A stretch of DNA of 64,000 bases. It comes from Candidatus Poribacteria bacterium. Lineage in GTDB: Bacteria > Poribacteria > WGA-4E > PCPOR2b. Shown here piece by piece: positions 33,460 through 49,892 of this stretch (position 1 is its first letter; the number at the start of each line of letters is the position of its first letter). The translations under genes and the position numbers were made by a program. Below the pieces are notes generated by a model, which searched no databases, had not been told where the DNA came from, and was given only the letters and a program-made list of their open reading frames with translations. The stretch lies in contig OZ242326.1 in assembly GCA_965208325.1 (NCBI GenBank), positions 544,001 to 608,000 of the forward strand, written 5' to 3'.

Positions 33460-33462
33460 ACA

Positions 33463-34191
33463 ATGAAAGTACTAATTTTGGGCGGACACGGTTTTTTAGG
33501 CCCACATCTTGTGACGGCATTAGAGCGATATCACCATCTGCGCATCACAGATATCAAACCGATCGAAACCGAACATGAATCAATGCACGTTGACGTTGAA
33601 TCGCTGGATGAAGTTTTGAAAGCTGCGGAGGGGATGGACGCTATCATCAACTGTTCGGTTTTGCGTGAGGATCGCCAGCTCGCGTTTGATGTGAACACAC
33701 GCGGGTGCTACAACGCCATGTGCGCCGCAGTAAAACACGGCATTCGGAGAGTGATTAACACCGGTCCGCATTTTACGATCCAAGGAAGTTCTTACACGGA
33801 CTTCGACTACGAAATCAATCCGGATGTGCCTCCGCATCCGGGCACGCTCCTTTATGCAATCTCAAAGGGACTTGGGCAGGAGATTTGTAAAGTTTTCACA
33901 GAGAATCATGACATTCATGTGCTCTGTTTTCTTTTTCTAGCGTTCTATTCACATGATGTTGCGGGCGAAGGGACAGATATTAATGCGTTCTCTGTCTCGT
34001 GGCGAGATGCGGCAGAGATATTCAGGTTGGGATTGGAGATTGACCTTGCCGAACTTCCGTCGCGGTGCGAGGTATTCAATATCTTTAGCAATTTACCGCA
34101 TCGGCAATTCTCTAACGACAAAGCAAAACGGATTCTCGGTTTCAACCCGCAAGACAACTTTGAGAAGAAATGGCACAGGTATCGGGCATGA
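33463..34191 (+). CDS. NAD-dependent epimerase/dehydratase (uronate dehydrogenase-like SDR)
   Basis: GGHGFLG, DVNTRG.YN, YAISK and AKRILGFNP motifs. Confidence 0.82.
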   Translation: MKVLILGGHGFLGPHLVTALERYHHLRITDIKPIETEHESMHVDVESLDEVLKAAEGMDAIINCSVLREDRQLAFDVNTRGCYNAMCAAVKHGIRRVINTGPHFTIQGSSYTDFDYEINPDVPPHPGTLLYAISKGLGQEICKVFTENHDIHVLCFLFLAFYSHDVAGEGTDINAFSVSWRDAAEIFRLGLEIDLAELPSRCEVFNIFSNLPHRQFSNDKAKRILGFNPQDNFEKKWHRYRA

Positions 34192-34395
34192 TGAAAATTG
34201 CAAATACGAAACTCGCTTCGTGGCGCACAGGCACTTGGATTTCGGTTGTTGATAAAATCTTGGTTTTTTACTGCAATTTAGTTTGAATGCGGGTTTTAAT
34301 CCCAATGTCGCGCCTCACGTGCCGAGAACCATGACGGATCCTACAAACAAAATTGTTAATGCAATCGAATATAGCCGCGTGGTGTTACGCGCAAA

Positions 34396-35388
34396 TCACA
34401 CCGGAAACAACAATTGCTGATCGAAGAAAACCTTGCTGACAGATCGATGTTGGTGAATCCTCAAGATGGCTTCAGCGACCAGCGGAGCGATGGAAAGCAC
34501 CTTAATCTTCCCGTGTAGCTGTTTTTCTGCCGGAACAGGAATCGTATTGGTGACGACCACCTCTTGGATGCCGGGGTGACTTAGTCGTTCAAGTGCAGAA
34601 CCGACGAGTACGGGATGGGTAACGCTTATATATGAGGGATTAGCGCCCGCTTTGGATAGTGCTTCGACCTGTTTGTAAATCGTACCGCCAGTCGCAATTT
34701 CATCGTCAATAATTATGGGGGTTTTGCCCGCGACATCACCGACGAGTTCAACAAATTCAACCTGCTGACCGCCCACGCCGCTGCGCCGTTTGTGCATTAA
34801 GGCTAACGGTAGTTCGAGCATATCCATGTACTTTTCTGCTAACTTAGCGCGTCCAACGTCAGGAGAGGCAATAACTCCATTTTCGATATGCTTCTCTCTG
34901 AAATAGTTCACCAATATTGCGACAGCAGTTAAATGATCCATAGGAATATCGAAGAAACCTTGAATCTGCGATGCGTGTAGGTCCAGTGCCACGACACGAT
35001 TCGCGCCTGCGGTGGTCAATAGATCTGCAACCAACTTTGCGCTAATCGGTTCCCGCCCAGTGGTTTTGTGGTCCTGGCGGGCGTAACCAAAGTACGGAAT
35101 AACAGCGGTAATCTGTCTTGCAGATGCACGTTTCATTGCGTCGATGGTAAGGAGTAATTCCATCAAGTGGTCGTTAGCTGGTTCGCACGTTGGTTGAATG
35201 ACATAAATATCCGTACCGCGAATACTTTCTTCAATTTGGACGCTGGTCTCGCTGTTTGGGAATTGACGGATTGAAATCCTTCCAAGCTCAACGTCCAGAA
35301 TGGCAGCGACCTCCTTTGAAATCTCCGGATTCGCACGCCCTGAGAATAATCTGAAATCGCTGCCAACCCTTTCCATTTTCATGGACAT
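34396..35388 (-). CDS. prs: Ribose-phosphate pyrophosphokinase
   Basis: VIPYFGYARQD, DLHASQIQGFFDIP, SPDVG and IDDEIATGGT motifs. Confidence 0.96.
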   Translation of the reverse strand: MSMKMERVGSDFRLFSGRANPEISKEVAAILDVELGRISIRQFPNSETSVQIEESIRGTDIYVIQPTCEPANDHLMELLLTIDAMKRASARQITAVIPYFGYARQDHKTTGREPISAKLVADLLTTAGANRVVALDLHASQIQGFFDIPMDHLTAVAILVNYFREKHIENGVIASPDVGRAKLAEKYMDMLELPLALMHKRRSGVGGQQVEFVELVGDVAGKTPIIIDDEIATGGTIYKQVEALSKAGANPSYISVTHPVLVGSALERLSHPGIQEVVVTNTIPVPAEKQLHGKIKVLSIAPLVAEAILRIHQHRSVSKVFFDQQLLFPV

Positions 35389-35451
35389 ATTGCTATAACC
35401 TCCGTGATTTTTTCGTGCTTATCACATTGGAATGAGGCACACACCCAATGC

Positions 35452-35970
35452 CTAACCAATGTTCATTCTATGCGGTAATCCCCACTGAAGAACAATTTCA
35501 GGCGGGAAAACACATGATTCAATTTCGGAAATCAGATTTTGTAGCATATTCCTTGCCTTCTCTGCTACATCGCCCCGTATCCAATTGTGCAAAATCGCGT
35601 TCTCAAATTCATCTTCATCATGAAGTTGATATCTTCCATCCGGCGAAACCCACAAATCCAAAAATAAATCTGTAATTTCGAAATGCGTTTTTGTTCGATT
35701 CATCGGCATAATTATGTCACAGTAATAACCCGTGAGTTTATTGTCAAGATCATAAATCTTGCCAATGTCATACCATCGGTTGGCGAAGACAAACCAAATG
35801 GCGGTAAAGTCATTCCCAAGCACAGTCACTCCGTCAATCACGATTGGCTTTGAAGGGTTGACCTGCTGAAGGGTTACGATTAAGTCTTTGTCTTCATGAA
35901 GCAAGTCCTGTTGAAAATGGCTAACGCGATCCGGCAAACGTCTGTAGATTAGTTCGATAGTCTGCGTCAT
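35452..35970 (-). CDS. DUF402 (FomD-like) protein
   Basis: WYDI...Y, GYYCDI..P and DLFLDLWV.PDG....L.DEDEF motifs. Confidence 0.85.
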   Translation of the reverse strand: MTQTIELIYRRLPDRVSHFQQDLLHEDKDLIVTLQQVNPSKPIVIDGVTVLGNDFTAIWFVFANRWYDIGKIYDLDNKLTGYYCDIIMPMNRTKTHFEITDLFLDLWVSPDGRYQLHDEDEFENAILHNWIRGDVAEKARNMLQNLISEIESCVFPPEIVLQWGLPHRMNIG

Positions 35971-36588
35971 TTAAACTGTTGTTGCTCTCACGGCGTCAAT
36001 AAATGCCTTGATTTTGGCAGGATCTTTGCGGCCCGGGCTTATTTCAACGCCGCTGCTGACATCAACACCATACGGTCGCACCTGCAGAATCGCTGACGCA
36101 ATGTTTTCAGGATTTAGCCCCCCAGCCAAAATGATCCGACCATATTGTCTTGCCTTTACTGCTAGGTTCCAATCGAAAACTCTACCTGTGCCGCCCATTG
36201 CCCCTCTGACATAAGCATCCAATAAATACGCACTGACGCGAAAATCGCCCAAACGAGACAGGTTCGATTCGTCTTTAACACGGAATGCTTTGACAACTTT
36301 TCGTTTCAATGATAAGCATAATTCCGGCGACTCTTCACCGTGTAATTGTATCGCATCTAAAGAACAGTCGATTGCAACCTTATTAATTTCGCTCAATTCG
36401 GCGTTAACGAACAGTCCGACGGTTGTAATGAAGGGAGGTAAATCTTCGATAATTTCTGCCGCTTCATCGGGATGGAGATATCGGGGTGTGTTTGGGACAA
36501 ATATAAAACCGAGCGCATCTGCACCTGCCTCCACCGCAATCAATGCATCGACAAGGTTCGTTGTTCCACATATTTTGATGCGAGTCAA
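35971..36588 (-). CDS. trpF: Phosphoribosylanthranilate isomerase
   Basis: IKICG, GADALGF, QLHGEE, GGTG..FDW, LAGGL and GVDVSSGVE motifs. Confidence 0.96.
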   Translation of the reverse strand: MTRIKICGTTNLVDALIAVEAGADALGFIFVPNTPRYLHPDEAAEIIEDLPPFITTVGLFVNAELSEINKVAIDCSLDAIQLHGEESPELCLSLKRKVVKAFRVKDESNLSRLGDFRVSAYLLDAYVRGAMGGTGRVFDWNLAVKARQYGRIILAGGLNPENIASAILQVRPYGVDVSSGVEISPGRKDPAKIKAFIDAVRATTV

Positions 36589-36795
36589 CGTGCAATCCTC
36601 GGGTCTTATCGGTTTTCCTTTGTAATCTTATTGTAACAAATTGTCAAAGTATAGATCAAGCCATAAGTCATTCAAAGATTCAAACTTTAATTTAAAAAAA
36701 TCTGACATTTTTCTCGTTTGAATTGACTCCCCATTTCTAAACTCGTTAAAATTCTCAAGCTCATCTCAGTTGAATCTAACAAGATAAACTGTCAA

Positions 36796-37581
36796 CTACG
36801 AATGCGTTGAATTCGTTGTACTCGTTCTATGTTCAAAGTGTGTTTGTAGAGCGACGCTGCTAGACAAGATATGTTGAGTCATTGCTTGCTGTGCCTCTTC
36901 AGCATCCCTGTTTTGGAGCGTTAGGAGAATTTTCTGGTGCTCTCGAACCGACAAAATTGCGCGTCTTTCCGCTTTAGGAATTGGGGGTTCGGCTAGACTC
37001 CCTTTAATCCACGTTTGCAGGTAATTGCGTGTCATGTTTAGTAGGTTATAAAGTATCGAATTCTGTGTGGCTTGAGCAACCGTAAGGTGGAACTGCACAT
37101 CGAATCCTAAATATTTCTCGGGCTGCTGAATTGATGCTTCCATTCCCTTAAGCGTTAGCTCGATTTCGTCTATGTTCTCGGACGAAGCCCTTTGTGCAGC
37201 TAGAAATGCGGTTTGGGATTCCAACATCAGCCGAGTTTCAATCAAATCTTGGATTTTTTTTCGGTCGAGCAACAAACTCCACTGCAGGGCTTTTTCTAAA
37301 TACCGCTCGTTGTCGTTGGAGACAAAAGTGCCGTCACCAACTCGTCCGTCTAGTATTCCCATTACGGTAAGAGAACGCAGCGCTTCTCTTAACGAACTGC
37401 GCCCCACTCCAAATTGTCTACATAGCGCACGTTCAGAGGGAAGCCGGTCACCGGGTTTAAGCACATCTCTCGAAATCAGGTCGACAATTTGAGATACAAT
37501 TTCATCGCTAAGAGACGTACGAGCAATAGGACGCATCTCTTCCATGGCTGAGTTTATCGTGTTATGGTGTCTCATATTCAT
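36796..37581 (-). CDS. FadR-subfamily GntR transcriptional regulator
   Basis: LKPGDRLPSER.L...FGVGRSSLREAL, G.GTFV and an FCD domain (ETR..LE, D.QFH..V..A..N, EH..I). Confidence 0.92.
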   Translation of the reverse strand: MNMRHHNTINSAMEEMRPIARTSLSDEIVSQIVDLISRDVLKPGDRLPSERALCRQFGVGRSSLREALRSLTVMGILDGRVGDGTFVSNDNERYLEKALQWSLLLDRKKIQDLIETRLMLESQTAFLAAQRASSENIDEIELTLKGMEASIQQPEKYLGFDVQFHLTVAQATQNSILYNLLNMTRNYLQTWIKGSLAEPPIPKAERRAILSVREHQKILLTLQNRDAEEAQQAMTQHILSSSVALQTHFEHRTSTTNSTHS

Positions 37582-37662
37582 TCACACTGCCTCGTGTTTT
37601 CCATTTAACAATTCAATAATACCGTGCATGCAACCATAGTCAAATTGCACGAAAAAATTTGC

Positions 37663-37717
37663 TTTACAATTCTATGATTTTGCGATAAAATAACTAAAGG
37701 TCAGACCATCAGTTATT
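37663..37717 (+). promoter_or_regulatory. Promoter and FadR-type operator of the methyltransferase operon
   Basis: TTTACA(37663-68)-17 nt-TAAAAT(37686-91) overlaps the palindrome AATAACT-aaa-GGTC-a-GACC-atc-AGTTATT (37689-37717). The core GGTCAGACC matches the FadR/PdhR/LldR GGT-N3-ACC motif. Confidence 0.75.
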
Positions 37718-37808
37718 ATGCTTCTAACTTTCTCTGTTGTCAAGTAAATTACATTGTGAATGAACAGCCGAGAATGCGATTAAATCATTACCCGAGAGGA
37801 TTTAAACC

Positions 37809-38444
37809 ATGGGTGAGACGATCGATATTGGAAGGCGGATTGAATTGGTTCCGATGGATTCCCATTTTCAAGACATTACTATTGGCTTGTACAGCCAGGA
37901 ACAGGATGAGGGTCCCGCGTATTTAATTCATACATATAGTCGCCTGGACGGCACCGAGCAGCGCATTGCATTTGTGCGAAGGGCGATGAAAATTTTGGGA
38001 GGCTTGGAATGTACTCTTGATGGGTTGCTACGGTTTCCTTGTAAGGCAAAACATGAACTTGCTTGTAAACGCATTTTTCTGGAAGCATGCAAGCTCAACC
38101 CGGACAAGCCGATCACGCCGCGCCCTCTAAATACTCTCGACAAGAAGTCCGGTTTTACTATCACGGTTCTCAGTCTCGGAAACGGGGTTTATCAAATCAC
38201 GGCCGATGGCGAGGGGCGTCACAGAGCAAAGCGCATATCGGCTATTGGCGGAGGTTTAATTAAACTCGGGCAGATGGATGAAACAGGTGAAGATGCAGAT
38301 CGAGTGGCTTTTTCTTGTGGACACGTCCACGATGCCATGGTTGGACTATTACTGGTTCGTGCGCCGAATGTACGCGCCGTAATGCGGGAACAGCAGGCGG
38401 TTGCATCACGAGGGACGCTGTCAGCACCCAGCCAACAGGAATAG
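37809..38444 (+). CDS. Hypothetical protein with an internal two-fold repeat (F-x-C-x3-H)
   Basis: GAGGA RBS; first gene of the operon. Repeats end in LRFPCKAKH and VAFSCGHVH. Confidence 0.75.
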   Translation: MGETIDIGRRIELVPMDSHFQDITIGLYSQEQDEGPAYLIHTYSRLDGTEQRIAFVRRAMKILGGLECTLDGLLRFPCKAKHELACKRIFLEACKLNPDKPITPRPLNTLDKKSGFTITVLSLGNGVYQITADGEGRHRAKRISAIGGGLIKLGQMDETGEDADRVAFSCGHVHDAMVGLLLVRAPNVRAVMREQQAVASRGTLSAPSQQE

Positions 38445-38493
38445 TCTGAACGCAAGTAATGACTAGTCCTTTTTACGTTAGGAGAAAAACGAG

Positions 38494-39549
38494 ATGCAAA
38501 CTCAATCAATGACGAGTCGCCAACGTGTCCTTGCAGCGTTGCAAAGAGCACCGGTGGATCGGACGCCCATTTGCAATCCGACATCTGTGGCCACGGTGGA
38601 ATTGATGGACTTGGTAGATGCGCCGTTCCCTGAGGCAAACCGGCAGCCGGACCTGATGGCACGGCTAGCCGCGACTGGTTATACTGAGTTAGGATTCGAC
38701 ACGATTATGCCGGTTTTCACTATTATTCAAGAGTCTTCCGCACTCGGTTGCAAGATTCAATGGGAACAAAAGGATAACTGGCCCACTGTGAAAATGCGAG
38801 AACCGATTTGGGAAGACGTTGAGGACATCAAAATTCCGCCCAATCTCATAACTCACCAAGATACTCGCTGCGTGACCGATGCGATCCAAATCCTCAAAAA
38901 GGAGTACGGCGAAGAAGTCGCTGTGATCGGCAAGACGATGGGACCCTGGTCGCTCGGATACCACTGTTTCGGGGTCGAGCCTTTTCTGCTGTTGTCCTTA
39001 GACGATCCGGAAAAAACGAAACTCGCGCTGGATAAGATGAAAGAAATCACGATAGCGTTTGGGTTAGCACAGATTGAAGCCGGGGCGGATGCGCTAACCT
39101 TGCCCGATCACGCAACTGGGGATTTGGTCAGCGGCGAGTATTATCAGCGGTACTTGCGGGATCTTCACATTGAGTTTGCCGAACGCCTTCCAATCCCGCT
39201 AATTCTACATATTTGCGGGCGCACGGTCGACCGTATGGAGTACATCGCACAAACTGGTTTCGCAGCTTTCCATTACGACTCCAAGAATGCCCCGGATGAG
39301 TCCATGGCAGTGATGCAGAAGCGAATTGCCCTAGTCGGGAATATCAACAATCCCGAAACGTTGTTTGCAAAAGGCCCTGAGGAAGTGCGCCAGGAAGTCT
39401 ACAAAAATCTTGATGCAGGTGTCGAACTTGTAGGTCCTGAATGTGCGATTCCGCTGCAAACTTCGATTGAAAACCTAAAAGAGATTCCCGCGGCCGTCAA
39501 TGATTGGCACCGGCAAAATGCGAGTTTGATTCAAGAAGAATATATTTGA
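38494..39549 (+). CDS. MtaA/CmuA-family (UroD-fold) corrinoid methyltransferase
   Basis: MTSRQRVLAAL....VDR.P, ESSALGC, GPWSL, Zn ligands LHICG and GPECAIP, and LVGNI motifs. Confidence 0.88.
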   Translation: MQTQSMTSRQRVLAALQRAPVDRTPICNPTSVATVELMDLVDAPFPEANRQPDLMARLAATGYTELGFDTIMPVFTIIQESSALGCKIQWEQKDNWPTVKMREPIWEDVEDIKIPPNLITHQDTRCVTDAIQILKKEYGEEVAVIGKTMGPWSLGYHCFGVEPFLLLSLDDPEKTKLALDKMKEITIAFGLAQIEAGADALTLPDHATGDLVSGEYYQRYLRDLHIEFAERLPIPLILHICGRTVDRMEYIAQTGFAAFHYDSKNAPDESMAVMQKRIALVGNINNPETLFAKGPEEVRQEVYKNLDAGVELVGPECAIPLQTSIENLKEIPAAVNDWHRQNASLIQEEYI

Positions 39550-39567
39550 AACTTAAAGAGACATACT

Positions 39568-40332
39568 ATGCCTGAAATTACCGACATCGTAAATGATTTC
39601 ATTAGGGATGAAATCGAAGAATACATTGAACGTGCCGATGAACGTACGCGCACTATCAATATATTGGCGCAAGCAAGTCCCGCGATGCAAGCAATTGCTG
39701 CCGCACTTGTTGACGGGGACCACCATACCGTGGATCGATTAACAAAAGAGGCTTTGCACGCGGGTACGGAGGCTTTGGAGATTATGGACGATGGCCTCAT
39801 CGCTGGGATGGGAATTGTTGGAATAAAGTTTCGAGAAAATTTCATTTTCGTCCCGGAAGTCCTCGCTTGTGCGCGCGCAATGAAGGCCGGCATGGCGTAT
39901 ATCGAACCGATACTGTCCGCGTCGGGGATTGAGCCAATTGGTACCGTTATCATGGGGACAGTGAAAGGAGATCTGCACGATATTGGCAAAAATTTATGCA
40001 TCATGATGCTTCGCGGCGCAGGATTCGTTGTACACGATTTGGGCGTCGATACTTCAGACGACGAGTTTATTGATGCCGTGGAAGAACACGGTGCGCCGGT
40101 GCTAGGAATGTCGGCACTCTTGACTACGACGATGCCCAACATGGGTAAGACGATTGAAGCTTTCATTGATGAAGATCTCCGCGAAGATGTCAAAATCATG
40201 GTCGGTGGGGCGCCCGTAACCCAAGAGTTTGCCGATGATATGGGTGCGGACGGATATGGGAAGGACGCACTTGCGTGCGTGGCGCTTGCCAAGCAACTGT
40301 TTGTAGAACTTAGAGACGAAGGAAGGCTATAA
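39568..40332 (+). CDS. Corrinoid (cobalamin-binding) protein
   Basis: Cap domain (GLIAGM..VG..F....FVPEV...ARAM), GTVKGDLHDIGKN, MSALLTTTM and VGGAPV motifs. Confidence 0.93.
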   Translation: MPEITDIVNDFIRDEIEEYIERADERTRTINILAQASPAMQAIAAALVDGDHHTVDRLTKEALHAGTEALEIMDDGLIAGMGIVGIKFRENFIFVPEVLACARAMKAGMAYIEPILSASGIEPIGTVIMGTVKGDLHDIGKNLCIMMLRGAGFVVHDLGVDTSDDEFIDAVEEHGAPVLGMSALLTTTMPNMGKTIEAFIDEDLREDVKIMVGGAPVTQEFADDMGADGYGKDALACVALAKQLFVELRDEGRL

Positions 40333-40520
40333 ACGGTTTTACACCAGTCTTGCTTTATGCTCCCACCGTGCTATTCTGATGAAGTAACTAAGCAAAAATT
40401 AGCCAAACAAGTGAATTAGCACATTGTTGGCCTTAATCGCTAATCGGCGAAGTTCTTGAGCTGATATTTTGTCACTGCCAAGATTCACGTCTGTGTGTTG
40501 AATTTGCGGAAAGGTTTAAC

Positions 40521-42434
40521 ATGCCGAGGATTTCCAAGGAAGAATATCGGAAACGGTTGGACAAAATTACGGAATTGTTCGCTAGCATCGTGGGACACGC
40601 CGATGAACAAGCCGCATATAGGTGTCCCTACAAAAACCGGTTCGATCAATGTACTGCCAAATTCGGCTGTAGGAATCAGCGTAAACCTCGTGAAAAAGGG
40701 AAGTCATTGATGTGCGGCGGCGACGATAAGCTTGACTATCGCAGCGCATGGGATACTGAGGCTGGTGTAGGTGTTTTTATTGAGAGTGAAGGCGATTATG
40801 GAAAGGGCACTATAACGCATGACGGCACAAAGCGTAACCTTACAGCCGGGAAAACAGTTTTCGACTATGCTGACGAATTGGCGGTACAGGTGCCGACCTC
40901 CTGTTTTCGTACGGGGCAATGTCACGAGTGTATCGTTGAGATTAAGCAAGGCATACAGGCATTGCGTCCACGCAACGAAGCTGAGTCGTTTCTTCGGGAA
41001 AATTACCGTCTTGCTTGTCAGGCAGTTGTCGAAGACCCCGATACCGATGTACAGTTTTCGCCGCTGCGCAGAAAGCCTAGGATTCTCACACTTACCCAAG
41101 AAAAGCCCGCTGAACTCGAACCGATGGTCACCCGCCAGGGCGATACAGTCTACTACGATAGGGAAGCTATCGACACATACCGCGGGCACCTTTACGGTCT
41201 TGCCATAGATTTGGGTACCACAACCGTCGTAATGGATTTGGTAAATCTTGAGACCGGCGAAAGCGTGAGCGTCAACTCCTTTGAAAATCCGCAGCGGTTC
41301 GGCGGCAGCGATGTGATGCATCGTATTTCATACGACGGTGTGTATGCCGGTGAGTTACGCAAGGCGGTTACCAATGCCCTGAATCACGAAATCGCCGAGA
41401 TGGGAAAACGTTTGGGCTTCGTCCGTCAGGAAATCTACGAGATTGTTGTTGCGGGCAACTCGACTATGCGCGATATTTTCTTCAAGTTGGACGTGCAGAG
41501 CATCGGCCAAAAACCCTATAAGTCCGTGATTGAACACGCGTACATCGCAGAGGAACTCAACACGACTTCGCTTGTTGAGAAAACGCGGCGTTTAGGGCTT
41601 CGGGCGAATCCAAGAGCCCGAGTTTATGGGTTGCCGTTGATTGCAAGCCATGTGGGTGCCGATGTTGCAGCCGATTTGGTCGCCATTGACATGGTATCGC
41701 AGAAAAAAGCGGTCATGCTGGTAGATGTTGGTACTAACACTGAAGTCGTTGTGGGACACGCGGGACGGCTGATAACAGCGTCTTGTCCGGCAGGTCCCGC
41801 GTTTGAAGGCAGCGGAATTAAATTCGGTATGCCAGGTTACGAAGGAGCCATCGAGTCAATTCGGTGGGGTGACGGCCAAATCAATTATGACACTATTGGC
41901 GGTATTGCACCACAAGGCATCTGTGGATCGGGATTAATCGACCTGTTGGCAGAACTTCGCCGCCATAATCAGATGACAGCAAAAGGTGTTTTTGCTGATA
42001 GAAAACAGTATGACATGACCGTTGTGCCCGAACATGGCATTACGCTTTCCCGGGAAGACATTAGCAACTTGGCTCAAGCCAAGGCAGCCAATTACTGCGG
42101 ACAATTGATAGTCTTGCGAGAGTTCGGTATCGACCCATCGGAAATCAATCGGCTTTATTTAGCCGGTGGATTCGCAAATTATGTGGATGTTCACAACGCC
42201 GTCGAAATCGGTTTTCTTGCGCCAGTGCGCGGCGATAGAATCGTCAAAGTTGGAAACGCAGCGGTGCAGGGCGCGCGGGAAGTTCTCCTATCACGGAAAA
42301 AGCGTGACAATATTGAGCATCTGGTTAAAGGAATTGAACATGTCGAACTAGAGACAACGCCCGATTTCTTTGAGGTGTTCGTGGAAGGGTGCCAGTTTAA
42401 ACCCATGCCGAAGGAGTTAGCTGACATATCATGA
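40521..42434 (+). CDS. ASKHA-domain reductive activator of corrinoid proteins (RACo/RamA-like) with a 2Fe-2S domain
   Basis: SC...G.C.EC...RLACQ ferredoxin, AIDLGTTT, NPQ..GG.DV..RI, GNSTM, VDVGTN.E, AGPAFEG, GICGSG and LAGGF motifs. Confidence 0.92.
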   Translation: MPRISKEEYRKRLDKITELFASIVGHADEQAAYRCPYKNRFDQCTAKFGCRNQRKPREKGKSLMCGGDDKLDYRSAWDTEAGVGVFIESEGDYGKGTITHDGTKRNLTAGKTVFDYADELAVQVPTSCFRTGQCHECIVEIKQGIQALRPRNEAESFLRENYRLACQAVVEDPDTDVQFSPLRRKPRILTLTQEKPAELEPMVTRQGDTVYYDREAIDTYRGHLYGLAIDLGTTTVVMDLVNLETGESVSVNSFENPQRFGGSDVMHRISYDGVYAGELRKAVTNALNHEIAEMGKRLGFVRQEIYEIVVAGNSTMRDIFFKLDVQSIGQKPYKSVIEHAYIAEELNTTSLVEKTRRLGLRANPRARVYGLPLIASHVGADVAADLVAIDMVSQKKAVMLVDVGTNTEVVVGHAGRLITASCPAGPAFEGSGIKFGMPGYEGAIESIRWGDGQINYDTIGGIAPQGICGSGLIDLLAELRRHNQMTAKGVFADRKQYDMTVVPEHGITLSREDISNLAQAKAANYCGQLIVLREFGIDPSEINRLYLAGGFANYVDVHNAVEIGFLAPVRGDRIVKVGNAAVQGAREVLLSRKKRDNIEHLVKGIEHVELETTPDFFEVFVEGCQFKPMPKELADIS

Positions 42435-42514
42435 CTTTAGAAACGTGTCGGGCAGCTCACATACCAGATAAGAAGCCTACAGGAAAGCTGACCACATATC
42501 TTTAGGAGACGAAG

Positions 42515-43552
42515 ATGAAGCTTAACGGTCTAGAATTCATAATTATTGGTGAAAATGTGCACACTACTCGTGTGGTGCGTCGAAAAGGGAAGCTCGTTAC
42601 GAATAACGCTGACGGTGTCGAATCCATTCGCTATCTAGATAGAAACAAAAAACGCCGGTATCTCGTCATCCCCGATAGCATCAGGAAAACTCAGGACTAC
42701 GAGGAAGGGCGCATTAAACACGTCAAGATCGCCATTCAGGCAGCCATGACCGAAAAAAATCCTCATGCCGGTGAAGGGCTCGAGTACCTGATGCGACTGG
42801 TGCAACGTCAGTTAGACGCCGGAGCCGATTACTTAGACTTGAATGTAGACGAGGTCTCATTGCATCTTGAGGAACAAAAGGATGCCATGAGATGGCTTGT
42901 GCAGGCCGTGCAGGAGATGTATTCTATTCCATTGTCGGTGGATTCATCCAATACGGAAATCATACAAGCGGGACTTGAGGCCGCTGATGGCAAAGTTGTC
43001 CAAACTATGCTAAATTCAGCAGCACCTGAACGCCTTGATACCCTAGATCTTGCGAAACAGTACCATACGAGGGTCATTGTTCAAGCAGCGAGCGTAAACG
43101 GTATGCCAGAAAACGCCGAAGAACGGGTGTCCAATGCCTCTTTCATGGTGGAAAAAGCCTTAGATAAAGGGATTGCGATTCATGATATTTTCATTGACCC
43201 CGTAATCTTTCCAATCTCAGTCGACAGCCAATACGGCAATCACTGCTTCGATGCGATACGGCAAATTCGCGAGAAATATGGTCCCAATCTCCATATTAGC
43301 GGCGGTTTCAGCAACGCCTCATTCGGTTTACCATGCCGCCGCCTCATTAACGATGTATTTATGATGTTAGCCATTGAAGCCGGTGCGGACAGTGGGATCA
43401 TTGATCCTGTCACGAGTGACCCTCGAAAGATTATGGCAATGGATCGACAGTCAAAGCCCTACAAACTCGCTGAAGATATGCTTCTGGGTAGGGACGAATA
43501 TTGCGCTAATTTTATAAAAGCATTTCGAAAAGGGGAATTGGAGCTCCGCTAA
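42515..43552 (+). CDS. Pterin-binding methyltransferase (methyl-THF:corrinoid, AcsE/MetH pterin-domain-like)
   Basis: IIGEN, Q..AGADYLDLNV, PLSVDS, NSA, IFIDP, GGFSN.SFGLP.R and G.DS.IIDP motifs, with an N-terminal insertion. Confidence 0.85.
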   Translation: MKLNGLEFIIIGENVHTTRVVRRKGKLVTNNADGVESIRYLDRNKKRRYLVIPDSIRKTQDYEEGRIKHVKIAIQAAMTEKNPHAGEGLEYLMRLVQRQLDAGADYLDLNVDEVSLHLEEQKDAMRWLVQAVQEMYSIPLSVDSSNTEIIQAGLEAADGKVVQTMLNSAAPERLDTLDLAKQYHTRVIVQAASVNGMPENAEERVSNASFMVEKALDKGIAIHDIFIDPVIFPISVDSQYGNHCFDAIRQIREKYGPNLHISGGFSNASFGLPCRRLINDVFMMLAIEAGADSGIIDPVTSDPRKIMAMDRQSKPYKLAEDMLLGRDEYCANFIKAFRKGELELR

Positions 43553-43555
43553 ACC

Positions 43556-43834
43556 GTGGCTGAATATCAAATATTGTACTGGAAGGGCATTCCAGCCCAA
43601 GTGAGAGTTCTTGAGGGAAAGAAAACAATCTCGCGAGAGATGCCCGCTCGTTTCCAAGCTGACATCGATCGAATCGCAATGCAAGAAGGTTTGTACGGAA
43701 GTGACAATTATCTTGACCAATGGGAATGGACCGAGAAACGCCAGCGGATCGGCGATGCCAAACTAGTATTAGATTCGATCTTACGTGAACTCGAAACCGA
43801 TTACGACGATAAATTTAGAAAACCGAAAAAATAA
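43556..43834 (+). CDS. Small PF13769 (virulence factor)-like protein of corrinoid methyltransferase loci
   Basis: ILYWKGIPAQV, RFQ..IDR.AM..G....D.YL..W motif; GTG start. Confidence 0.78.
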   Translation: MAEYQILYWKGIPAQVRVLEGKKTISREMPARFQADIDRIAMQEGLYGSDNYLDQWEWTEKRQRIGDAKLVLDSILRELETDYDDKFRKPKK

Positions 43835-43842
43835 TTTCAATA

Positions 43843-44889
43843 ATGCCCAATTTCTCACCTGAGACACTTCGTCATATCGGGTACCAGCTTTTTGAAGCCG
43901 CGGGCTGTAAACCCGAAGATGCGCACGTTGTGGTTAATCACCTGATCGAATCCAATCTCTTTGGTCATGATTCTCACGGCGCTATTCGGTTTGGCGAATA
44001 CCTGCGCGCTATTCGAGAAGGTCGGTTCCAACCTCGTGAAACACCTGAGACTGTAAGCGAAAACCCATGTACCGCGGTCGTTGACGCCCGCGGCGCACTA
44101 GGGCAAATCGGCGCGTCCTATGCGATGAACTTGGCAATTGAAAAGGCTGGCCGCCACGGTGTTGGCACGGTGACCTTACGGAATACAAGCCATGTTGGGC
44201 GCGTGGGCGCCTATCCTTTAATGGCCGCTCAGACAGAGATGATTGGTCTTGCCTTTGTCAATGCGGGCCGGCTCGGTTACCAAATTGTTCCCTTTGGAGG
44301 CATTGATGGCCGCCTAAGTACCAACCCAATTGCATTTGCTGCCCCGCGCCGGGAAGCCCCGCCTATTTTTGTTGATATGACTACCTCGGTATCTGCCGAA
44401 GGTAAAATTCGGGTTGCTATCAACCAGGGAAAACAGGTTCCCGAGGGCTGGATCATTGATGCTCAAGGCAATCCCACCACGGATCCGAAAAATTTTAAAG
44501 GTCCTCCGCCCGGAGCCATCCTTCCACTAGGCGGAGTAGTAGCACACAAGGGCTACGGTTTGAGTATTGTTGTAGAACTCTTGGGCGGTGCCTTGAGCGG
44601 TCAAGGTTGTGCCGCTGGTGAACGTTCAATGGCAAGCAATGGTGTGCTATTTACCGTATACCACATTGAGCATTTCACCACTCTTGATGCTTTCTATAAC
44701 GAAGTGGAATTACTGCTTAATCACATCAAATCGAGCCGACTAGCCCCCGGGTTTGTGGAAATCTTAGCGCCTGGTGAACCTGAATTTCGTAACGCTCAAC
44801 GGAAAATGGTCGAAGGAATTGATATTGATGAGACAACTTGGAATAATATCTGCGAAGAAGCTCTCGCCTTCGGGATTAATCTAGAATAA
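43843..44889 (+). CDS. Ldh_2 family (malate/L-lactate/ureidoglycolate-type) oxidoreductase
   Basis: GHDSHG, H.GR.G.Y, TNPIAF..P, DM.TS...EGK, GW..D..G.PTTDP, HKGYGL and PGEPE motifs. Confidence 0.9.
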   Translation: MPNFSPETLRHIGYQLFEAAGCKPEDAHVVVNHLIESNLFGHDSHGAIRFGEYLRAIREGRFQPRETPETVSENPCTAVVDARGALGQIGASYAMNLAIEKAGRHGVGTVTLRNTSHVGRVGAYPLMAAQTEMIGLAFVNAGRLGYQIVPFGGIDGRLSTNPIAFAAPRREAPPIFVDMTTSVSAEGKIRVAINQGKQVPEGWIIDAQGNPTTDPKNFKGPPPGAILPLGGVVAHKGYGLSIVVELLGGALSGQGCAAGERSMASNGVLFTVYHIEHFTTLDAFYNEVELLLNHIKSSRLAPGFVEILAPGEPEFRNAQRKMVEGIDIDETTWNNICEEALAFGINLE

Positions 44890-44941
44890 TGGTGTACCAA
44901 CGCAATGTAATTGTCGAAATTTTAAAATTAGAGCACTTCAA

Positions 44942-45943
44942 ATGAGGACGTTTCTTGAGAGGTTTGCCGACCCAAGCCCTATGATTTACGATGGCGGATT
45001 TGGCTCAGAACTGTTTGCCAGAAGGATTGAGCTGACGAATAGCGAACTTGCGAACGAACTGCATGCAGACGCGGTAATGAATATTCATTCTGATTATATT
45101 GAAGCAGGCGTTAATGCCCTAGCATCAAACACTTTTGTAGCTTCAAGGCTGCATCTTGAAATGGCAGGAATAGAGGGGCATGTGGCGGATAAAACCGCCC
45201 AGTTGGCGGTAGAACATGCCAAGGTAGCAGTTGAAAAAGGTGGCAAGGAAATATATATCGCAGGATCGTTTGGACCTTCGCCCGGCGCAATTGACGCCGA
45301 TAGCGGCGATATTGATTTTGGAATCCCGATCGCTGTTGTCAGGGATGTTTATGAAAGGCTAGCGAACGTTCTGGCAGATGGCGGCGTTGGCTTTTTCGGT
45401 ATAGAAAACATGTTTTCCGCGAGGGAAGCCGCAATAGCAGTCGATGCTACCAGAAAATACGGGCTTCCTATCGCCGTAAACTTGACATATAAGCGCACGA
45501 AGGACCGCGCTAGCGGCAACGTCGTTTACCGTACAGATTGGGGGCATTCGACGGCGAAATTAATAGGCATATTGTCAAGCGGGGAGTTCTCCAATGGTGA
45601 TAATCTGTTGGATTATGTCCACATATTAGGTCTAAATTGTGGTGCGGAAGTCAAGCATGAGCAACACACTGGGATGCCCTATGCGATAAATGGAATACAA
45701 CAGTTGAAAGAAGCATTGGCGATGAATAATGTTCAATCGAAACGGTTGATGGCTTATCCAAATGCAGGTATGGCACGCCTGGACCAGAATCAGCGTACAT
45801 ATAATTCGCAATCCGCATAAGAAATGGTGATTTTCTTACCAACACTTCTCCTAGCAGGTGCATACTTTGTCGGTGGATGCTGCGGCTCTGGATTTTCCCA
45901 CATTTAAGCCTTTCGTGAAATTATCTCCCCGATAAACAATTGA
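44942..45943 (+). pseudogene. Homocysteine S-methyltransferase (MetH N-terminal-like) interrupted by two in-frame TAA codons
   Basis: DGGFGSEL, H..YI.AG....SNTF, IAGS.GP, GLNC and AYPNAG precede TAA at 45818-20. The same frame continues EMVIFLPTLLLAGAYFVGGCCGSGFSHI*(45905-07)AFREII..., with TGA at 45941-43. Confidence 0.85.
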
Positions 45944-45992
45944 CGTAATACCGCTCCAATCCAGATAGCCCCGCGGTACGTAGCAGTTTTAA

Positions 45993-46021
45993 TTGACAAA
46001 CTCCCAATAGAGTCGTATACT
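45993..46021 (+). promoter_or_regulatory. Near-consensus sigma70 promoter upstream of the 845-aa FBPase gene
   Basis: TTGACA(45993-98)-17 nt-TATACT(46016-21). Confidence 0.7.
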
Positions 46022-46216
46022 AACTATTTATAAAAATGCTGTTGCCCGCCTTCTTTAGGCTTTTGTTTTTCCCGTCTTAATACATGTCTCTAGTGAAAAC
46101 TTGCCTAACTTCAGTATGTATAGTTTAGTCTAATAAGCGGCGATCCGAATTCATCCGCGGTTTTGAAAACGGTAAGATGTATAAGGGGCGGTGACAGCAA
46201 CTTTGGAGGTGAATGA

Positions 46217-48754
46217 ATGTCCGATTCCTTTGATGAATCTAGAGAAAATCGTCCACACGGACAATCTAATGTCACCATTGTTACTCTCGATTTGGGGCGT
46301 TGGATTCATGGTGAATTGCCCAACCAGATTGTAGAATTGGCACGCAATGAACTTCAAGGCGGACAATTAGAGAACCGGTTGCGTGGTGCGTGGGTACGAG
46401 GATTTGCGGGGGATTTGCATCTGCACATAACAACCTACAACGAAGATTTCATCGTAAACGGCGCGTATACGAATCATCCTATTGAGGCCGCGGTGCGAGC
46501 CGCTGTCAATGCGGGCCTCATTGCGCTGGAAGAAGCCGTTAAAATGCAACGCTGTACTGACGCGGCAAAGGAAGTCCTGACACTTGATACCGAACAGCAA
46601 GCCGAGGCGTTGCGGCCGTATTACCTAAACTTCCCCTTTACCGAGAGAGGCGCCGAACCCATATTTGCTGCGAAGGCTATCAACGGAAGCTGGGGATTCT
46701 TCAACCGCGCCGTTTTTAATCTGTTTTTCAACCCGGATAAAGGTTCCGGGAGGCGCATTGAGGGAAATGAATTTTTGGGTGTAGTTGAATCAATTGCGGA
46801 TCTCAAGAACGGCGTGGATAATGTACGAACCTATGAGTTTGGCCCTGGAAACCTTAACGAAATGGTCGCATTAATTGCCGACGCCGATGAATGGCGACTC
46901 AGCCGCGTATACGCAGTCCGCGGTAAGTTCGGTGAAAGTGAACTGCGTGGAGAACCCGCCCTTGTGGTCGAAGGTGCCAAAAACCCAGTTTTGGTAGGTC
47001 GCTCTCAGTCAGGTCTTCCCGCTGTCGGTGAATTCACTCAAGCCGTTGGAGAATTCTGCTTTGGACCAGGAGGCGGCGCAGGCAAATACCGGGTTGGACT
47101 CATGCCCGTTAATTTTGAAGAGGCACGCTGCAATTCAATTCCTCAAGGTACAGCGAAAATAGTCGCCTATGCCTATCAGTCCTACGACTACGGAAAGATT
47201 CCGAGTGATTCGGATGTGGTTGACGTTTTTGACCAAAACCGCCCTGAGACTAGGCGTTTACAGCGAGATGCAGCAGACCTAATCGGAAAAATGGTCAGTC
47301 ACGGGGAGTTTGAGCCTTACGTGAACCCAATGGCCGCAGAAGATACCGCCTCACGCGAGGCGCAACGTTTGGTGACACGCTTTGAATCAATTCCTGAAAC
47401 TTCTGACCTTTTGTTAGAAGCCGCAAACAAAAAGGCTATCTTCACACTATCTGATATTAAAGCCGACAGCGGCGGCAAAGTTGGACATACCACGCCCCCT
47501 CACATGTTCCGATATGTTGCGGAGGCTAGTCTGCAAGAAGGGAAAGAAGCAGGGCTAATCTTCGAATCGTCCGAAATCATTGAAGTTGGGGACGACGGAC
47601 ATCTGTTGATGAGTCATAACCGCGGGGCAGATAGCAATGAAATTCATCTTTTCGCTTACCGTACTTTTTTCCGGCAAGTGTGGGTAGCCGAGGTATTGGG
47701 ACAAAAGTGGTATGGTTTGGGGCAGGATTTGGTCGGAGAAACGACGGCTGGACATCCTACCGAAGAATTGGCAAACCTAAACGATGCTTTTCTCAAATTA
47801 TTGCCCAAATTCCTGCCTGCCGCGGAACGTGCACACATAGGTCAGCTTGAAAACGCGTATAGAGTGTGGAAGACTGGTGAAGGCAAAGGGCATAACGTAC
47901 TTCACGTTTTTTCAGGTAACATCTCAGGACAAGGTCCCGGCTTTGCGGAACTCCCGTTGTTTCGCCCTGGTAGAATTGGGCTGCTGGCGATTGACAAAAC
48001 AGGGCCCTCAGCCTTTAATTTGCCGATATGGTGGAGCTTAAATCAAGCATCAGCATCGGGCGCCCTCACTTCCTATCTCAACCAGACCGGGTCAGTAGGC
48101 TGCGTATTGGAAATTTGGGATGTGGAGCATCATCGTCGTATTTTCCTAGACTTCAAGAGTGAAGCAGAAATTGCGCAGCATTTACTTGGCGCGGTCGAAA
48201 GGTTTAACATCAAGCGAATTTGGAGCTGTCGAGCGAATAACTGGAACGCAGAAAGCCCATCGGACGGACTGGGTGAGGTGCTTTTGGCGGCCTCAACTGA
48301 GAAGCTCGCGGTCATTACCGGCGGAGAATACCGAGGGAAAGATGACCCTGTTTTGCTTGCAGTGGAGCCTTTGGCGGACGCGCTCAACCTATTCATGCGC
48401 GATTGCTTTTACATGACCCAGGGAGATGGCCGAGGTTCTCATTTCATGTTCCCGACGCCGCTGCCCTTCCAAGATGCTATAGCGACGGTCAACAGCCGCG
48501 CCGTGGCGGTGTCCGCTTGGGTTAGCATTAATCCTGACGGTCAGATCTGTGGGTTGCAGGACGTTTTTTCGGATGCAATCTACGAAAACGCACGGGATCG
48601 AGCTTACCGGTTAAATAAAGCAATCTGGGATGCTCAAGGCGGCAACTTTATTCCCGTCGGTGTAGGTTCAGCCAAGGTAGAACAATCATATCCTCTGGCA
48701 AAAATGCTGGACCGCATCACTGCCTCAAATTCCGAGTTTGCTTCCAAGCACTAG
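46217..48754 (+). CDS. Tandem-duplicated fructose-1,6-bisphosphate aldolase/phosphatase (class V FBPase) family protein
   Basis: The C-half has IKADSGG.VGH, VGDD..L.M.H, YGLGQDL, FSGN..G.GPG.AE, DKT.P.AFNLP, STEKL....YRGKDDPV and RGSH. The N-half has FTER..EPI, RSQSGLPAVGE, LMPV and HGEFEP. GGAGGTG RBS. Confidence 0.82.
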   Translation: MSDSFDESRENRPHGQSNVTIVTLDLGRWIHGELPNQIVELARNELQGGQLENRLRGAWVRGFAGDLHLHITTYNEDFIVNGAYTNHPIEAAVRAAVNAGLIALEEAVKMQRCTDAAKEVLTLDTEQQAEALRPYYLNFPFTERGAEPIFAAKAINGSWGFFNRAVFNLFFNPDKGSGRRIEGNEFLGVVESIADLKNGVDNVRTYEFGPGNLNEMVALIADADEWRLSRVYAVRGKFGESELRGEPALVVEGAKNPVLVGRSQSGLPAVGEFTQAVGEFCFGPGGGAGKYRVGLMPVNFEEARCNSIPQGTAKIVAYAYQSYDYGKIPSDSDVVDVFDQNRPETRRLQRDAADLIGKMVSHGEFEPYVNPMAAEDTASREAQRLVTRFESIPETSDLLLEAANKKAIFTLSDIKADSGGKVGHTTPPHMFRYVAEASLQEGKEAGLIFESSEIIEVGDDGHLLMSHNRGADSNEIHLFAYRTFFRQVWVAEVLGQKWYGLGQDLVGETTAGHPTEELANLNDAFLKLLPKFLPAAERAHIGQLENAYRVWKTGEGKGHNVLHVFSGNISGQGPGFAELPLFRPGRIGLLAIDKTGPSAFNLPIWWSLNQASASGALTSYLNQTGSVGCVLEIWDVEHHRRIFLDFKSEAEIAQHLLGAVERFNIKRIWSCRANNWNAESPSDGLGEVLLAASTEKLAVITGGEYRGKDDPVLLAVEPLADALNLFMRDCFYMTQGDGRGSHFMFPTPLPFQDAIATVNSRAVAVSAWVSINPDGQICGLQDVFSDAIYENARDRAYRLNKAIWDAQGGNFIPVGVGSAKVEQSYPLAKMLDRITASNSEFASKH

Positions 48755-49134
48755 CACGAGTTTCAGGAAAGAAAAAACAACTCGAAACTACCAGCCCACG
48801 CCCCTTTGGTTTTAACCCTGCCAAGTTTGCACAAACTGCGAATTCAAAAACGTTAACTGTGTAGCAAAGACATTCATTGCAAAGGGTTTTGGAATAGAAT
48901 GATTGTGCGTGCTGACCTACCAATGGAGGACGTTTTAAATAGATATGGTATTGTGAAACCAAATCTATACGCCGCACAGTTTCGCATTGGGTTTACAAAT
49001 CTCTTCAACTCCAAATGTGAATATGCCGTGTTGGAATAGCGTTTGAAACATTGCTGACCAAACCCATGCTAACTGATGCATGTTCCACGCAAGCGTTGTC
49101 CTTCGGGGACAGAAAAAATATTTGAACAAAATTA

Positions 49135-49177
49135 TTGACAAAGCGAAAGTCGTCTGTTATACTTAACGGCGTTAAGT
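49135..49177 (+). promoter_or_regulatory. Extended -10 promoter with overlapping TetR operator
   Basis: TTGACA(49135-40)-17 nt-TATACT(49158-63) with TGn. Perfect inverted repeat ACTTAACG-g-CGTTAAGT at 49161-49177. Confidence 0.8.
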
Positions 49178-49206
49178 TAAATTACGATGTAAATTATGGT
49201 TATGTA

Positions 49207-49812: not shown

Positions 49813-49858
49813 AATTTGAATTATTGGGCGAGGTTTAATATATTTTTTTGGCACTCTG

Positions 49859-49871
49859 TTAACACTGTTAA
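49859..49871. promoter_or_regulatory. Second TetR-type operator
   Basis: TTAACA-c-TGTTAA shares the TTAAC-N3-GTTAA core of the site at 49163-49175. Confidence 0.65.
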
Positions 49872-49892
49872 TTTAATTATCTATGTTAATAG

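Follow-up and report, generated by a model that had tools for sequence, protein, structure and literature searches.

Four-component corrinoid O-demethylases of acetogens and of Desulfitobacterium are encoded in one operon, which supplies methyltransferase I, a corrinoid protein, a methyl-THF-forming methyltransferase II and an activating enzyme. Phaeobacter inhibens reportedly has a three-part split MetH, and this too we count among the closest known systems. Corrinoid hubs for both methionine synthesis and demethylation were first described in 2025, with a substrate arm of the MttB family, according to the accessible part of the report (PMC12478193). As presented there, the MtgB-MtgC-MtgD-MtgE/RamA hub of Ruegeria pomeroyi uses one corrinoid protein both for methionine synthesis and for the demethylation of an outside methyl donor, the latter by way of a substrate-specific methyltransferase (PMC12478193).

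The locus described here lies at positions 36796-45943 of a window of 64,000 nucleotides, the whole stretch of DNA that was analysed (Candidatus Poribacteria bacterium GCA_965208325.1, contig OZ242326.1, positions 544,001-608,000). It is a regulated vitamin-B12 methyl-shuttling operon in a sponge-type Poribacteria bacterium, and it combines split methionine synthase parts with a methanogen-type methyltransferase and an undescribed 211-residue protein, here called U211. Like the R. pomeroyi hub, as far as the accessible part of that report describes it, the operon encodes corrinoid, pterin and homocysteine proteins separately together with a RamA/RACo-type activase, and in relatives of the operon, as in that type of hub, a metF paralogue lies beside the pterin gene (PMC12478193). 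The substrate arm differs, being the MttB-family MtgB in the same account of R. pomeroyi (PMC12478193) and an MtaA-type zinc enzyme of the URO-D fold with U211 here. Also unlike that hub, the corrinoid protein falls below the MtgC cut-offs, a PF13769 protein is present and the homocysteine gene is broken. The O-demethylases of acetogens and Desulfitobacterium, as generally described, have the same four-component operon layout, whereas here the operon occurs in sponge symbionts that look aerobic, and U211 and the homocysteine methyltransferase link are extra. What is new in this locus is a known type of corrinoid hub with a different arm, whose partner protein, U211, has no known family or fold.

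Components shared with known corrinoid systems

All nine genes and the palindrome of the first-pass annotation were recovered in place, with reading frames and families in agreement; one point had been overlooked, namely two in-frame TAA codons in the homocysteine methyltransferase gene. Its four-component logic was borne out, in that a methyltransferase, a corrinoid protein, an ATP-dependent activase and a pterin methyltransferase are all encoded. The corrinoid (cobalamin-binding) protein (39568-40332, + strand) has a cap and a Rossmann domain (PF02607, PF02310) and covers positions 642-862 of the MetH model. Among curated models MtgC_2 comes closest (197.9 bits, cut-off 370), the MtgC-specific models all scoring below their cut-offs, and the genome encodes no other corrinoid protein of the methyltransferase type. 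The reductive activase of the RACo type (40521-42434, +) carries an N-terminal 2Fe-2S (Fer2) domain and matches PF14574, PF17651 and PF00111 with 226, 141 and 32 bits. The pterin-binding methyltransferase (42515-43552, +), a methyl-THF:corrinoid enzyme resembling MtgD and the folate module of MetH, scores 82 bits with PF00809 and 207 bits with NF005719 (cut-off 259), and covers MetH model positions of about 368-614. In 21 related loci an MTHFR gene lies between the activase and pterin genes, a placement that fits methyl-THF oxidation.

The small PF13769 protein (43556-43834, +; 67 bits) is encoded in 39 of the 80 related loci that were compared, and in all the layouts read its gene stands beside one for a homocysteine or a pterin methyltransferase. 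It has no cysteines, its aromatic residues are conserved, and its AF2 model (pLDDT 89) found no match in the PDB. A search of the entire genome (completeness 95.6%) found neither MttB (PF06253) nor MtaB, so that the earlier remark that no enzyme of the MttB/MtaB type is present holds genome-wide.

The U211 and MtaA-like pair and the direction of methyl flow

The conserved unit is not the cassette proposed in the first-pass annotation; the constant part proved to be a pair of genes. U211 is followed directly by the MtaA-like gene in 79 of the 80 loci, compared with 50 that have the corrinoid protein, 48 the RACo activase and 22 the GntR regulator. The pair occurs at 272 places in a species-level genome collection and, in records that carry the labels of four phyla, is conserved at about 80% identity. 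Within the Poribacteria, 149 of 168 genomes encode U211 (107 of 110 in family f4), and none of the 11 outside the order of the analysed genome does. No transporter or other substrate-revealing gene conserved across phyla was found in the related loci. Loci of the Gemmatimonadota type have sugar-acid-type genes as neighbours (DHDPS family, NagB/PIG-L and xylose-isomerase-like), common to that one lineage only.

U211 (37809-38444, +) matches no family in Pfam or NCBIfam, has no sequence relative in the PDB and gave no convincing fold match (AF2 model, pLDDT 86). It is made up of two related halves, which align to each other with 93% probability (E 2.6e-7) and each contain an F-[PS]-C-x3-H motif. 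C78, H82, C94, C170 and H174 are invariant, as is a disordered C-terminal tail, SRGxLxAPSQQ. It has 892 homologues; the 269 representatives at 50% identity are nearly all of 200-230 aa, and no fused form was found. U211 may bind zinc and may pair physically with the MtaA-like enzyme.

The partner enzyme (38494-39549, +), an MtaA/CmuA-family zinc corrinoid methyltransferase of the URO-D fold (PF01208, 217 bits), passes TIGR01463 (248.5 bits, cut-off 235.4) and NF004889 (260.1 bits, cut-off 244). The equivalog models for methanogen MtaA (MtaA_Meth, 235.5 bits against 400) and for MtbA (196.8 against 600) are both missed, and orthology to either was rejected. Among solved structures the closest match is 4ay7 (MtaA of Methanosarcina mazei, E 3.5e-52), with which the H-x-C...C motif (LHICG and PECA) aligns residue for residue. 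We take these residues to be the zinc ligands of the MtaA-type site, presumably the site that MtaA uses for a thiol. H239, C241 and C317 are invariant in 20 orthologues, among which mean column identity is 87% over records labelled as four phyla, and the genome has only one such gene. By curated cut-offs and by the aligned motif, the methanogen enzymes MtaA (4ay7/4ay8), MtbA and MtpA (10.1101/548461) belong to the same family, and their partners likewise include a separate corrinoid protein and an activase. Their hosts are methanogens whereas the host here is a bacterium, and the accessible part of the report on the methanogen enzymes mentions no partner such as U211, which here is a constant neighbour of the MtaA-like enzyme (10.1101/548461).

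In our view the locus is, with a probability of roughly 0.55, a repressor-controlled corrinoid methyl-transfer hub in which U211 and the MtaA-like enzyme form a demethylating substrate arm. One corrinoid protein, held as Co(I) by the ATP-dependent activase of the RACo type, would serve several methyltransferases. The pterin-binding enzyme would connect it to methyl-tetrahydrofolate and, in relatives with an unbroken gene, the homocysteine methyltransferase would connect it to methionine; these two enzymes, with the corrinoid protein and activase, would amount to a methionine synthase split in the manner of MtgC/MtgD/MtgE-RamA. The MtaA-type zinc enzyme, acting with U211, would replace the MttB-family enzyme as substrate arm, and the pair would most likely demethylate a small methylated compound, either a methyl thioether or a methyl ether, and load the methyl group onto Co(I). 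From the corrinoid the methyl group would then pass to THF and, in relatives, also to homocysteine. The identity of the substrate would show which methylated compound is used or produced by uncultured symbionts of sponges and corals, and would give B12 methyl-transfer biochemistry a new type of component.

A bolder version of this proposal, and something of a long shot, is that U211 is a new zinc-binding subunit that turns a thiol methyltransferase of the MtaA type into a demethylase of an abundant marine methyl-sulfur compound, for example methylmercaptopropionate from DMSP, and delivers the methyl group directly to a corrinoid hub that forms methionine and methyl-THF. The second demethylation enzyme, for DMSP-derived methylmercaptopropionate, has, to our knowledge, not been identified in aerobic bacteria. 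If this version were true, sponge symbionts of several phyla would share the activity as a core trait.

In zinc-thiolate enzymes of the MtaA type, transfer from methyl-Co(III) to a thiol runs more easily than its reverse. For MtpA the reverse step, from MMPA to Co(I), is described as thermodynamically unfavourable in the accessible part of the report (10.1101/548461). Because of this preference the flow could be opposite to that proposed, with methyl-THF methylating the corrinoid and the MtaA-like enzyme and U211 passing the methyl group to an acceptor that is a thiol or is bound to a thiolate (a mercapto-acid, sulfide or methanethiol, for example, or a metalloid on the cysteines of U211), as part of a methylating or detoxifying system. 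We consider this unlikely. It would agree with the action of the closest characterised relatives (MtaA, 4ay7), which methylate thiols from methyl-cobamide, with the direction favoured by MtpA as far as that source goes (10.1101/548461), and with the five invariant Cys/His residues in U211. Four genomes have a cassette of homocysteine methyltransferase, PF13769, U211, MtaA-like, corrinoid and RACo genes without a pterin gene within 10 kb. Both methyltransferases in cassettes of this kind look like thiol methylases, which leaves no evident methyl donor and counts against demethylation. Reverse flow would there be without a methyl donor unless the homocysteine methyltransferase-like enzyme supplied one from a sulfonium compound. 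The MTHFR and pterin genes found within many operons suit a catabolic route to folate at least as well as they suit reverse flow.

Regulator and oxidoreductases

The divergent gene upstream of U211 (36796-37581, - strand) encodes a GntR-family protein with an FCD domain (PF00392, 65 bits; PF07729, 86 bits). The curated models closest to it are NanR (148.9 bits, cut-off 260) and LldR, neither of which reaches its cut-off. A divergent FadR regulator had been noted before, and a divergent regulator is confirmed, but it is not FadR proper, the fatty-acid regulator: the two FadR models give 54 and 51 bits where 189 and 249 are required, and the FadR_C domain PF07840 reaches 18.8 bits against 23.6. 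Its sequence makes it no more than a GntR regulator with an FCD domain, belonging to the FadR subfamily in the broad sense.

The operator-like palindrome between the two divergent genes (37689-37717; AATAACTAAAGGTC-a-GACCATCAGTTATT), with 14-nt arms that are 86% complementary and a spacer of 1 nt, was recognised in the first-pass annotation and is genuine. Its core, GGTC[A/T]GACC, and conserved flanks lie upstream of the U211 gene in every one of the 22 related loci where the regulator is divergent to that gene, and also in two further loci, L070 and L079. Promoter-like hexamers, which are consensus matches only, flank it at 37663-37691 (+) and 37743-37715 (-).

The Ldh_2-family NAD(P)-dependent 2-hydroxy/2-oxo-acid oxidoreductase (43843-44889, +) belongs to its family on the strength of PF02615 (357 bits), and it reaches the cut-off of none of the specific equivalogs (YbiC-type 274.5 against 336, sulfolactate dehydrogenase 218 against 500, AllD 197 against 496). 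The first-pass annotation had proposed it as part of the cassette, yet the neighbourhood comparison found it in only nine of the 80 loci, all from Poribacteria and all with the gene between those for PF13769 and homocysteine methyltransferase. It is a lineage-specific insert near the latter gene, a family-level addition outside the core. Nineteen other loci have an ApbA/PanE-type oxidoreductase, non-homologous to Ldh_2, directly before the homocysteine methyltransferase gene, and for this reason some oxidoreductase link may be real, although any such link goes with that gene and not with the MtaA-like gene.

These observations bear on the pathway first suggested, in which a methylated organic or sugar acid would lose its methyl group, Ldh_2 would oxidise the resulting 2-hydroxy acid and the FCD regulator would sense an acid. 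The suggestion was made to depend on Ldh_2 and FadR accompanying the methyltransferase genes in other genomes, and this was found only in part, as the counts of nine and 22 in 80 loci show. The affinity of the regulator to NanR and LldR agrees with an acid pathway, as do the retention of the Ldh_2 place in two genera of family f1 (75-76% identity) under purifying selection (dN/dS 0.12 against the closest relative, L001), the analogous ApbA/PanE enzymes and the sugar-acid-type neighbours in Gemmatimonadota-type loci. We nevertheless think it quite unlikely, given the rarity of both genes, the confinement of the sugar-type neighbours to one lineage, the position of both oxidoreductases beside the homocysteine methyltransferase gene and not the MtaA-like gene, and an H-x-C...C site that we take to be the thiol site of MtaA.

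The broken homocysteine methyltransferase gene and split methionine synthase

The last gene of the operon (44942-45943, +) is of the homocysteine S-methyltransferase family, resembling MtgE and the Hcy module of MetH (PF02574, 105 bits over the open part). Its frame is open only to 45820, whereas a full-length gene would end naturally at 45943. As the read-through translation and an alignment of the DNA with L001 show, in-frame TAA codons occupy 45818-45820 and 45905-45907, and L001 has GAA and AAA in their places. The same letters cover the stops in contigs of runs X1, X3 and X4, from two samples (X1 and X3 are one sample, possibly the source of the assembly, and X4 a second from the same study). 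The GGCC zinc motif lies downstream of the first TAA, and GGCCG stands at the end of all full-length orthologues. Thirty-two orthologues were listed, one of which (L031) is incomplete because the fetched locus stops within it; the 31 full-length rows, including L001-L003 of the same genus, have the gene intact beside the U211/MtaA pair. No second PF02574 gene was found in the genome. As the gene is truncated before its zinc site, methyl transfer to homocysteine, a step in the pathway first suggested, cannot run in this genome. The dN of this gene (0.043) is the highest in the operon, the remaining genes being under purifying selection. The hub can thus persist in this lineage without its methionine-forming arm.

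It is distinctly improbable that the operon is purely a split methionine synthase, with U211 and the MtaA-like enzyme as an alternative homocysteine-methylating or cofactor-handling module and no external donor. In favour of this reading, full-length MetH is absent from this genome, and none was found when families f1 and f2 and genus g12 were sampled (35 genomes); U211, like a housekeeping gene, occurs almost throughout the order; and the canonical homocysteine gene is broken while its neighbours are under purifying selection. Against it, homocysteine methyltransferase is intact beside the pair in relatives, and a 342-aa core-MetE-like gene encoded in this genome could supply methionine. Complete MetH is present in 26 of 61 genomes of the same order, among them all 23 sampled from family f4, and elsewhere in all four checked genomes with the pterin-less cassette, which lie outside Poribacteria. 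Much of the cassette does resemble a split MetH of the MtgC/D/E-RamA kind, as had been allowed for, but it is not simply that, since relatives with full-length MetH keep the U211/MtaA pair, which is therefore not merely a MetH fragment.

Composition, layouts and control of the cassette

ORF calls and profile scans confirm the gene list that the first-pass annotation gave for positions 36796-45943. A divergent GntR/FCD regulator is followed by eight co-oriented genes encoding, in order, U211 (a 211-aa protein without family, 37809-38444, + strand), an MtaA/CmuA-family methyltransferase (the MtaA-like enzyme, 38494-39549, +), a corrinoid protein, a RACo activase with a 2Fe-2S domain, a pterin-binding methyltransferase, a PF13769 protein, an Ldh_2 oxidoreductase and a homocysteine methyltransferase of the S-methyl_trans family (HMT, PF02574, 44942-45943, +). 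No RNA family, riboswitches included, was matched within 33000-50000 of the window at E values up to 0.1.

U211 matches 272 places in a species-level genome collection, and conservation was assessed over 10 kb on either side of the best 80 of these, all in MAGs labelled Poribacteria, Latescibacterota, Gemmatimonadota, Opitutales or merely "bacterium". An MtaA-like gene lies directly 3' of U211 in 79 of the 80 loci. Some loci end at contig ends, so that the remaining counts are lower bounds: at least 50 loci carry the corrinoid protein, at least 48 the RACo activase, at least 39 the PF13769 protein and at least 33 HMT, followed by the GntR regulator (at least 22), MTHFR (at least 21), the pterin methyltransferase (at least 20), an ApbA/PanE-type oxidoreductase (at least 19) and Ldh_2 (at least nine). 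The cassette as first described is thus conserved in its U211-MtaA pair, far less so in its regulator, and not in Ldh_2. Outer neighbours (beta-lactamase-like, PQQ_2, GNAT, DHDPS, NagB/PIG-L and others) were rejected as parts of the cassette because their synteny is lineage-specific.

Four layouts, A, B, B' and C, recur among the related loci. Layout A runs GntR / U211-MtaA-corrinoid-RACo-(PhyH)-MTHFR-pterin, then HMT and PF13769, and in the Poribacteria family f1 Ldh_2 stands between these last two. Layout B, PanE-HMT-PF13769-U211-MtaA-corrinoid-RACo, is without a pterin gene; layout B', found in Opitutales, is the same minus PanE, and layout C consists of the U211-MtaA pair alone, surrounded by unrelated genes. 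Genes for PhyH-type Fe(II)/2-oxoglutarate dioxygenases recur near the cassette in two layouts (L020 14604-15401, L072 2444-3430 and 14 further loci), lying between the activase and MTHFR in Poribacteria (12 loci) and about 7 kb upstream in loci of Gemmatimonadota type (15 loci).

The palindrome noted previously is present at 37689-37717, with 14-nt arms, and promoter-like hexamers, which are consensus matches only, flank it on both strands. The core GGTC[A/T]GACC, flanked by A-[AT]-[AT] on one side and AT-[CT] on the other, is found upstream of U211 in all 22 regulator-bearing loci, and the same core occurs in two more loci whose sequence ends just upstream. Without its flanks, the 8-base core is a common sequence (33 matches against about 46 expected in the 1.5 Mb searched), and it is therefore its position and flanks, rather than its count, that constitute the evidence. 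The regulator had been called FadR; it is indeed a divergent GntR/FCD protein, but not FadR proper, and it falls below every curated cut-off, with NanR and LldR as its nearest models.

Two genes near the operon may be mentioned. A DUF402 protein (35452-35970, - strand) lies just upstream of the regulator between trpF and prs; L001-L003 of the genus and locus L005 share this gene order, and there is no sign of DUF402 membership in the operon. An 845-aa ORF (46217-48754, +) has as its sole family the fructose-1,6-bisphosphate aldolase/phosphatase FBPase_3, whose 361-position model matches it in three stretches, best over residues 558-804. The protein exceeds the usual length more than twofold and could represent a tandem or an extended version. 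No intein family was reported in it.

U211 and the MtaA-like enzyme

The U211 family comprises 892 homologues; clustering at 50% identity leaves 269 representatives, almost all of them 200-230 aa long. Of 168 genomes in the window's phylum with a completeness of 80% or more, 149 carry it: nearly every genome of one order, and none of the 11 outside that order. Residues C78, H82, C94, C170 and H174 are invariant, as is a C-terminal tail, SRGxLxAPSQQ. In the AF2 model (pLDDT 86) a strand-strand-strand-helix...helix unit occurs twice, and the tail is disordered. The halves of the protein are related to each other (hhalign local probability 93%, E 2.6e-7), and each contains the motif F-[PS]-C-x3-H. 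Pfam and NCBIfam gave no match, and a Pfam search of 22 members at E values up to 5 returned single chance hits only. The best E value of a profile search against the PDB was 0.58, and a protein atlas gave no usable match. Foldseek (best E 0.04) assigned no fold, and the best VIA-align result, to urea carboxylase (Z 6.5, with 88 residues superposed at an rmsd of 3.1 Å), does not rise above what the tool itself declares as noise.

The PF13769 protein also has a confident structure model and no PDB match (E 0.5 at best with Foldseek, Z 3.4 at best with VIA-align). It shares no profile similarity with U211. A similar order of strands and helices had suggested that U211 might consist of PF13769-like units in tandem, but this was rejected at an hhalign probability below 1%. 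Fused forms of U211 above 370 aa were not found, which is weak evidence; P0203 (345 aa), in which part of U211 is joined to the start of a URO-D domain, has the appearance of a gene call with a frameshift.

Identity of the MtaA-like protein across records labelled Poribacteria, Latescibacterota, Gemmatimonadota and Opitutales is 77-98%, with a mean column identity of 87% among 20 sequences, and the window's genome has one such gene besides hemE. A plasmid collection held no copy of U211, and its matches to the MtaA-like enzyme were of 24-25% identity only. Our literature searches turned up no account of the U211-MtaA pair.

A disrupted homocysteine methyltransferase gene

The HMT frame closes at 45820, short of its natural stop at 45943. 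Two in-frame TAA codons, at 45818-45820 and at 45905-45907, interrupt it; the earlier reading overlooked these premature stops, where L001, the nearest relative, reads GAA and AAA. The GGCCG motif, found in all 31 full-length orthologues of the 32 listed (the gene of L031 ends at the locus edge), lies 3' of the first TAA in the window. Against L001 the gene has the highest dN of the operon (0.043, the other eight genes ranging from 0.008 to 0.032), with a dN/dS of 0.29. Contigs built independently from sequencing runs X1, X3 and X4 are identical to the window, letter for letter, throughout the part that they cover. X1 and X3 represent one sample, possibly the source of the window's assembly, whereas X4 comes from another sample taken in that study; as the contigs of the two samples agree, the stops are not an error of one assembly. 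None of the runs listed for this part of the window is registered as RNA. HMT is the sole PF02574 gene of the window's genome and is intact in the other three genomes of the genus (L001-L003).

Elsewhere in the genome, at G000:C1:4260851-4261828 (locus L086 1477-2505), a small 4Fe-4S protein gene precedes a core-MetE-like gene of 342 aa that matches PF01717 only. "Core" methionine synthases, which are of this size, accept methyl groups from corrinoid proteins (PMC7857596), and the 342-aa protein could be the source of methionine in this genome despite the broken HMT.

Direction of methyl transfer and relation to methionine synthase

The corrinoid, pterin, HMT and activase set corresponds to the parts of the split MetH of Phaeobacter and of the MtgC/MtgD/MtgE-RamA corrinoid hub of Ruegeria pomeroyi (PMC12478193). 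By analogy, the RACo activase would hold the corrinoid protein as Co(I), the pterin enzyme would exchange methyl groups with THF, and HMT, in the relatives, would yield methionine, with the MtaA-like enzyme and U211 probably forming the substrate-specific arm. We favour, with a probability of roughly 0.55, a flow in which Co(I) receives the methyl group of a small ether or thioether, since the hub works in this direction elsewhere, many of the operons include MTHFR, and layout B would otherwise be without a donor. Set against these considerations is the reverse direction, thiol methylation, which MtaA-type enzymes favour; transfer from MMPA to Co(I) is reported as unfavourable (10.1101/548461). 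We regard thiol methylation as unlikely, though a serious rival.

The first-pass annotation had placed Ldh_2 at the centre of a FadR-controlled demethylation operon, processing the demethylated product of a methylated organic or sugar acid. Its statement that MttB- and MtaB-type enzymes are missing can be extended to the whole genome, in which neither was found. The pathway itself is made distinctly doubtful by the rarity of Ldh_2 among the loci. Even so, the gene directly adjoining HMT encodes an oxidoreductase both in the window (Ldh_2) and in 19 other loci (ApbA/PanE, which is not homologous to it). As a lead, this may mean that the HMT arm acts on a 2-oxo or 2-hydroxy thiol acid.

The same annotation had recognised that the cassette might simply be a split methionine synthase. 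In the window's genome the MetH model matches only the corrinoid, pterin and HMT proteins, none at cut-off, the corrinoid protein being the one of its type, and complete MetH is found in none of 35 sampled genomes of families f1 and f2 and genus g12. It is present in 26 of 61 sampled genomes of the window's order, including all 23 of family f4, a family that retains U211-MtaA in 107 of 110 genomes. Each of four genomes with layout B or B' also has a complete MetH (>1600 bits) away from the cassette. The presence of the pair in MetH-bearing genomes argues that the cassette is not merely a split MetH, and weakens a pure methionine-synthase role, which we regard as improbable.

In genus g7, MetH-less Poribacteria of family f1 encode separate proteins, about 281 aa long, whose one match is to the activation domain of MetH (model positions 890-1182), and some encode proteins of 589 aa that combine a B12 with an activation domain; neither form occurs in the window's genome. 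In many Poribacteria (G018-G026, G078-G104) open frames of 896-949 aa hold a B12-binding match, several with stop codons listed within the match, and their size of about 900 aa, the sum of the corrinoid protein and RACo, suggests a fused corrinoid-activase gene.
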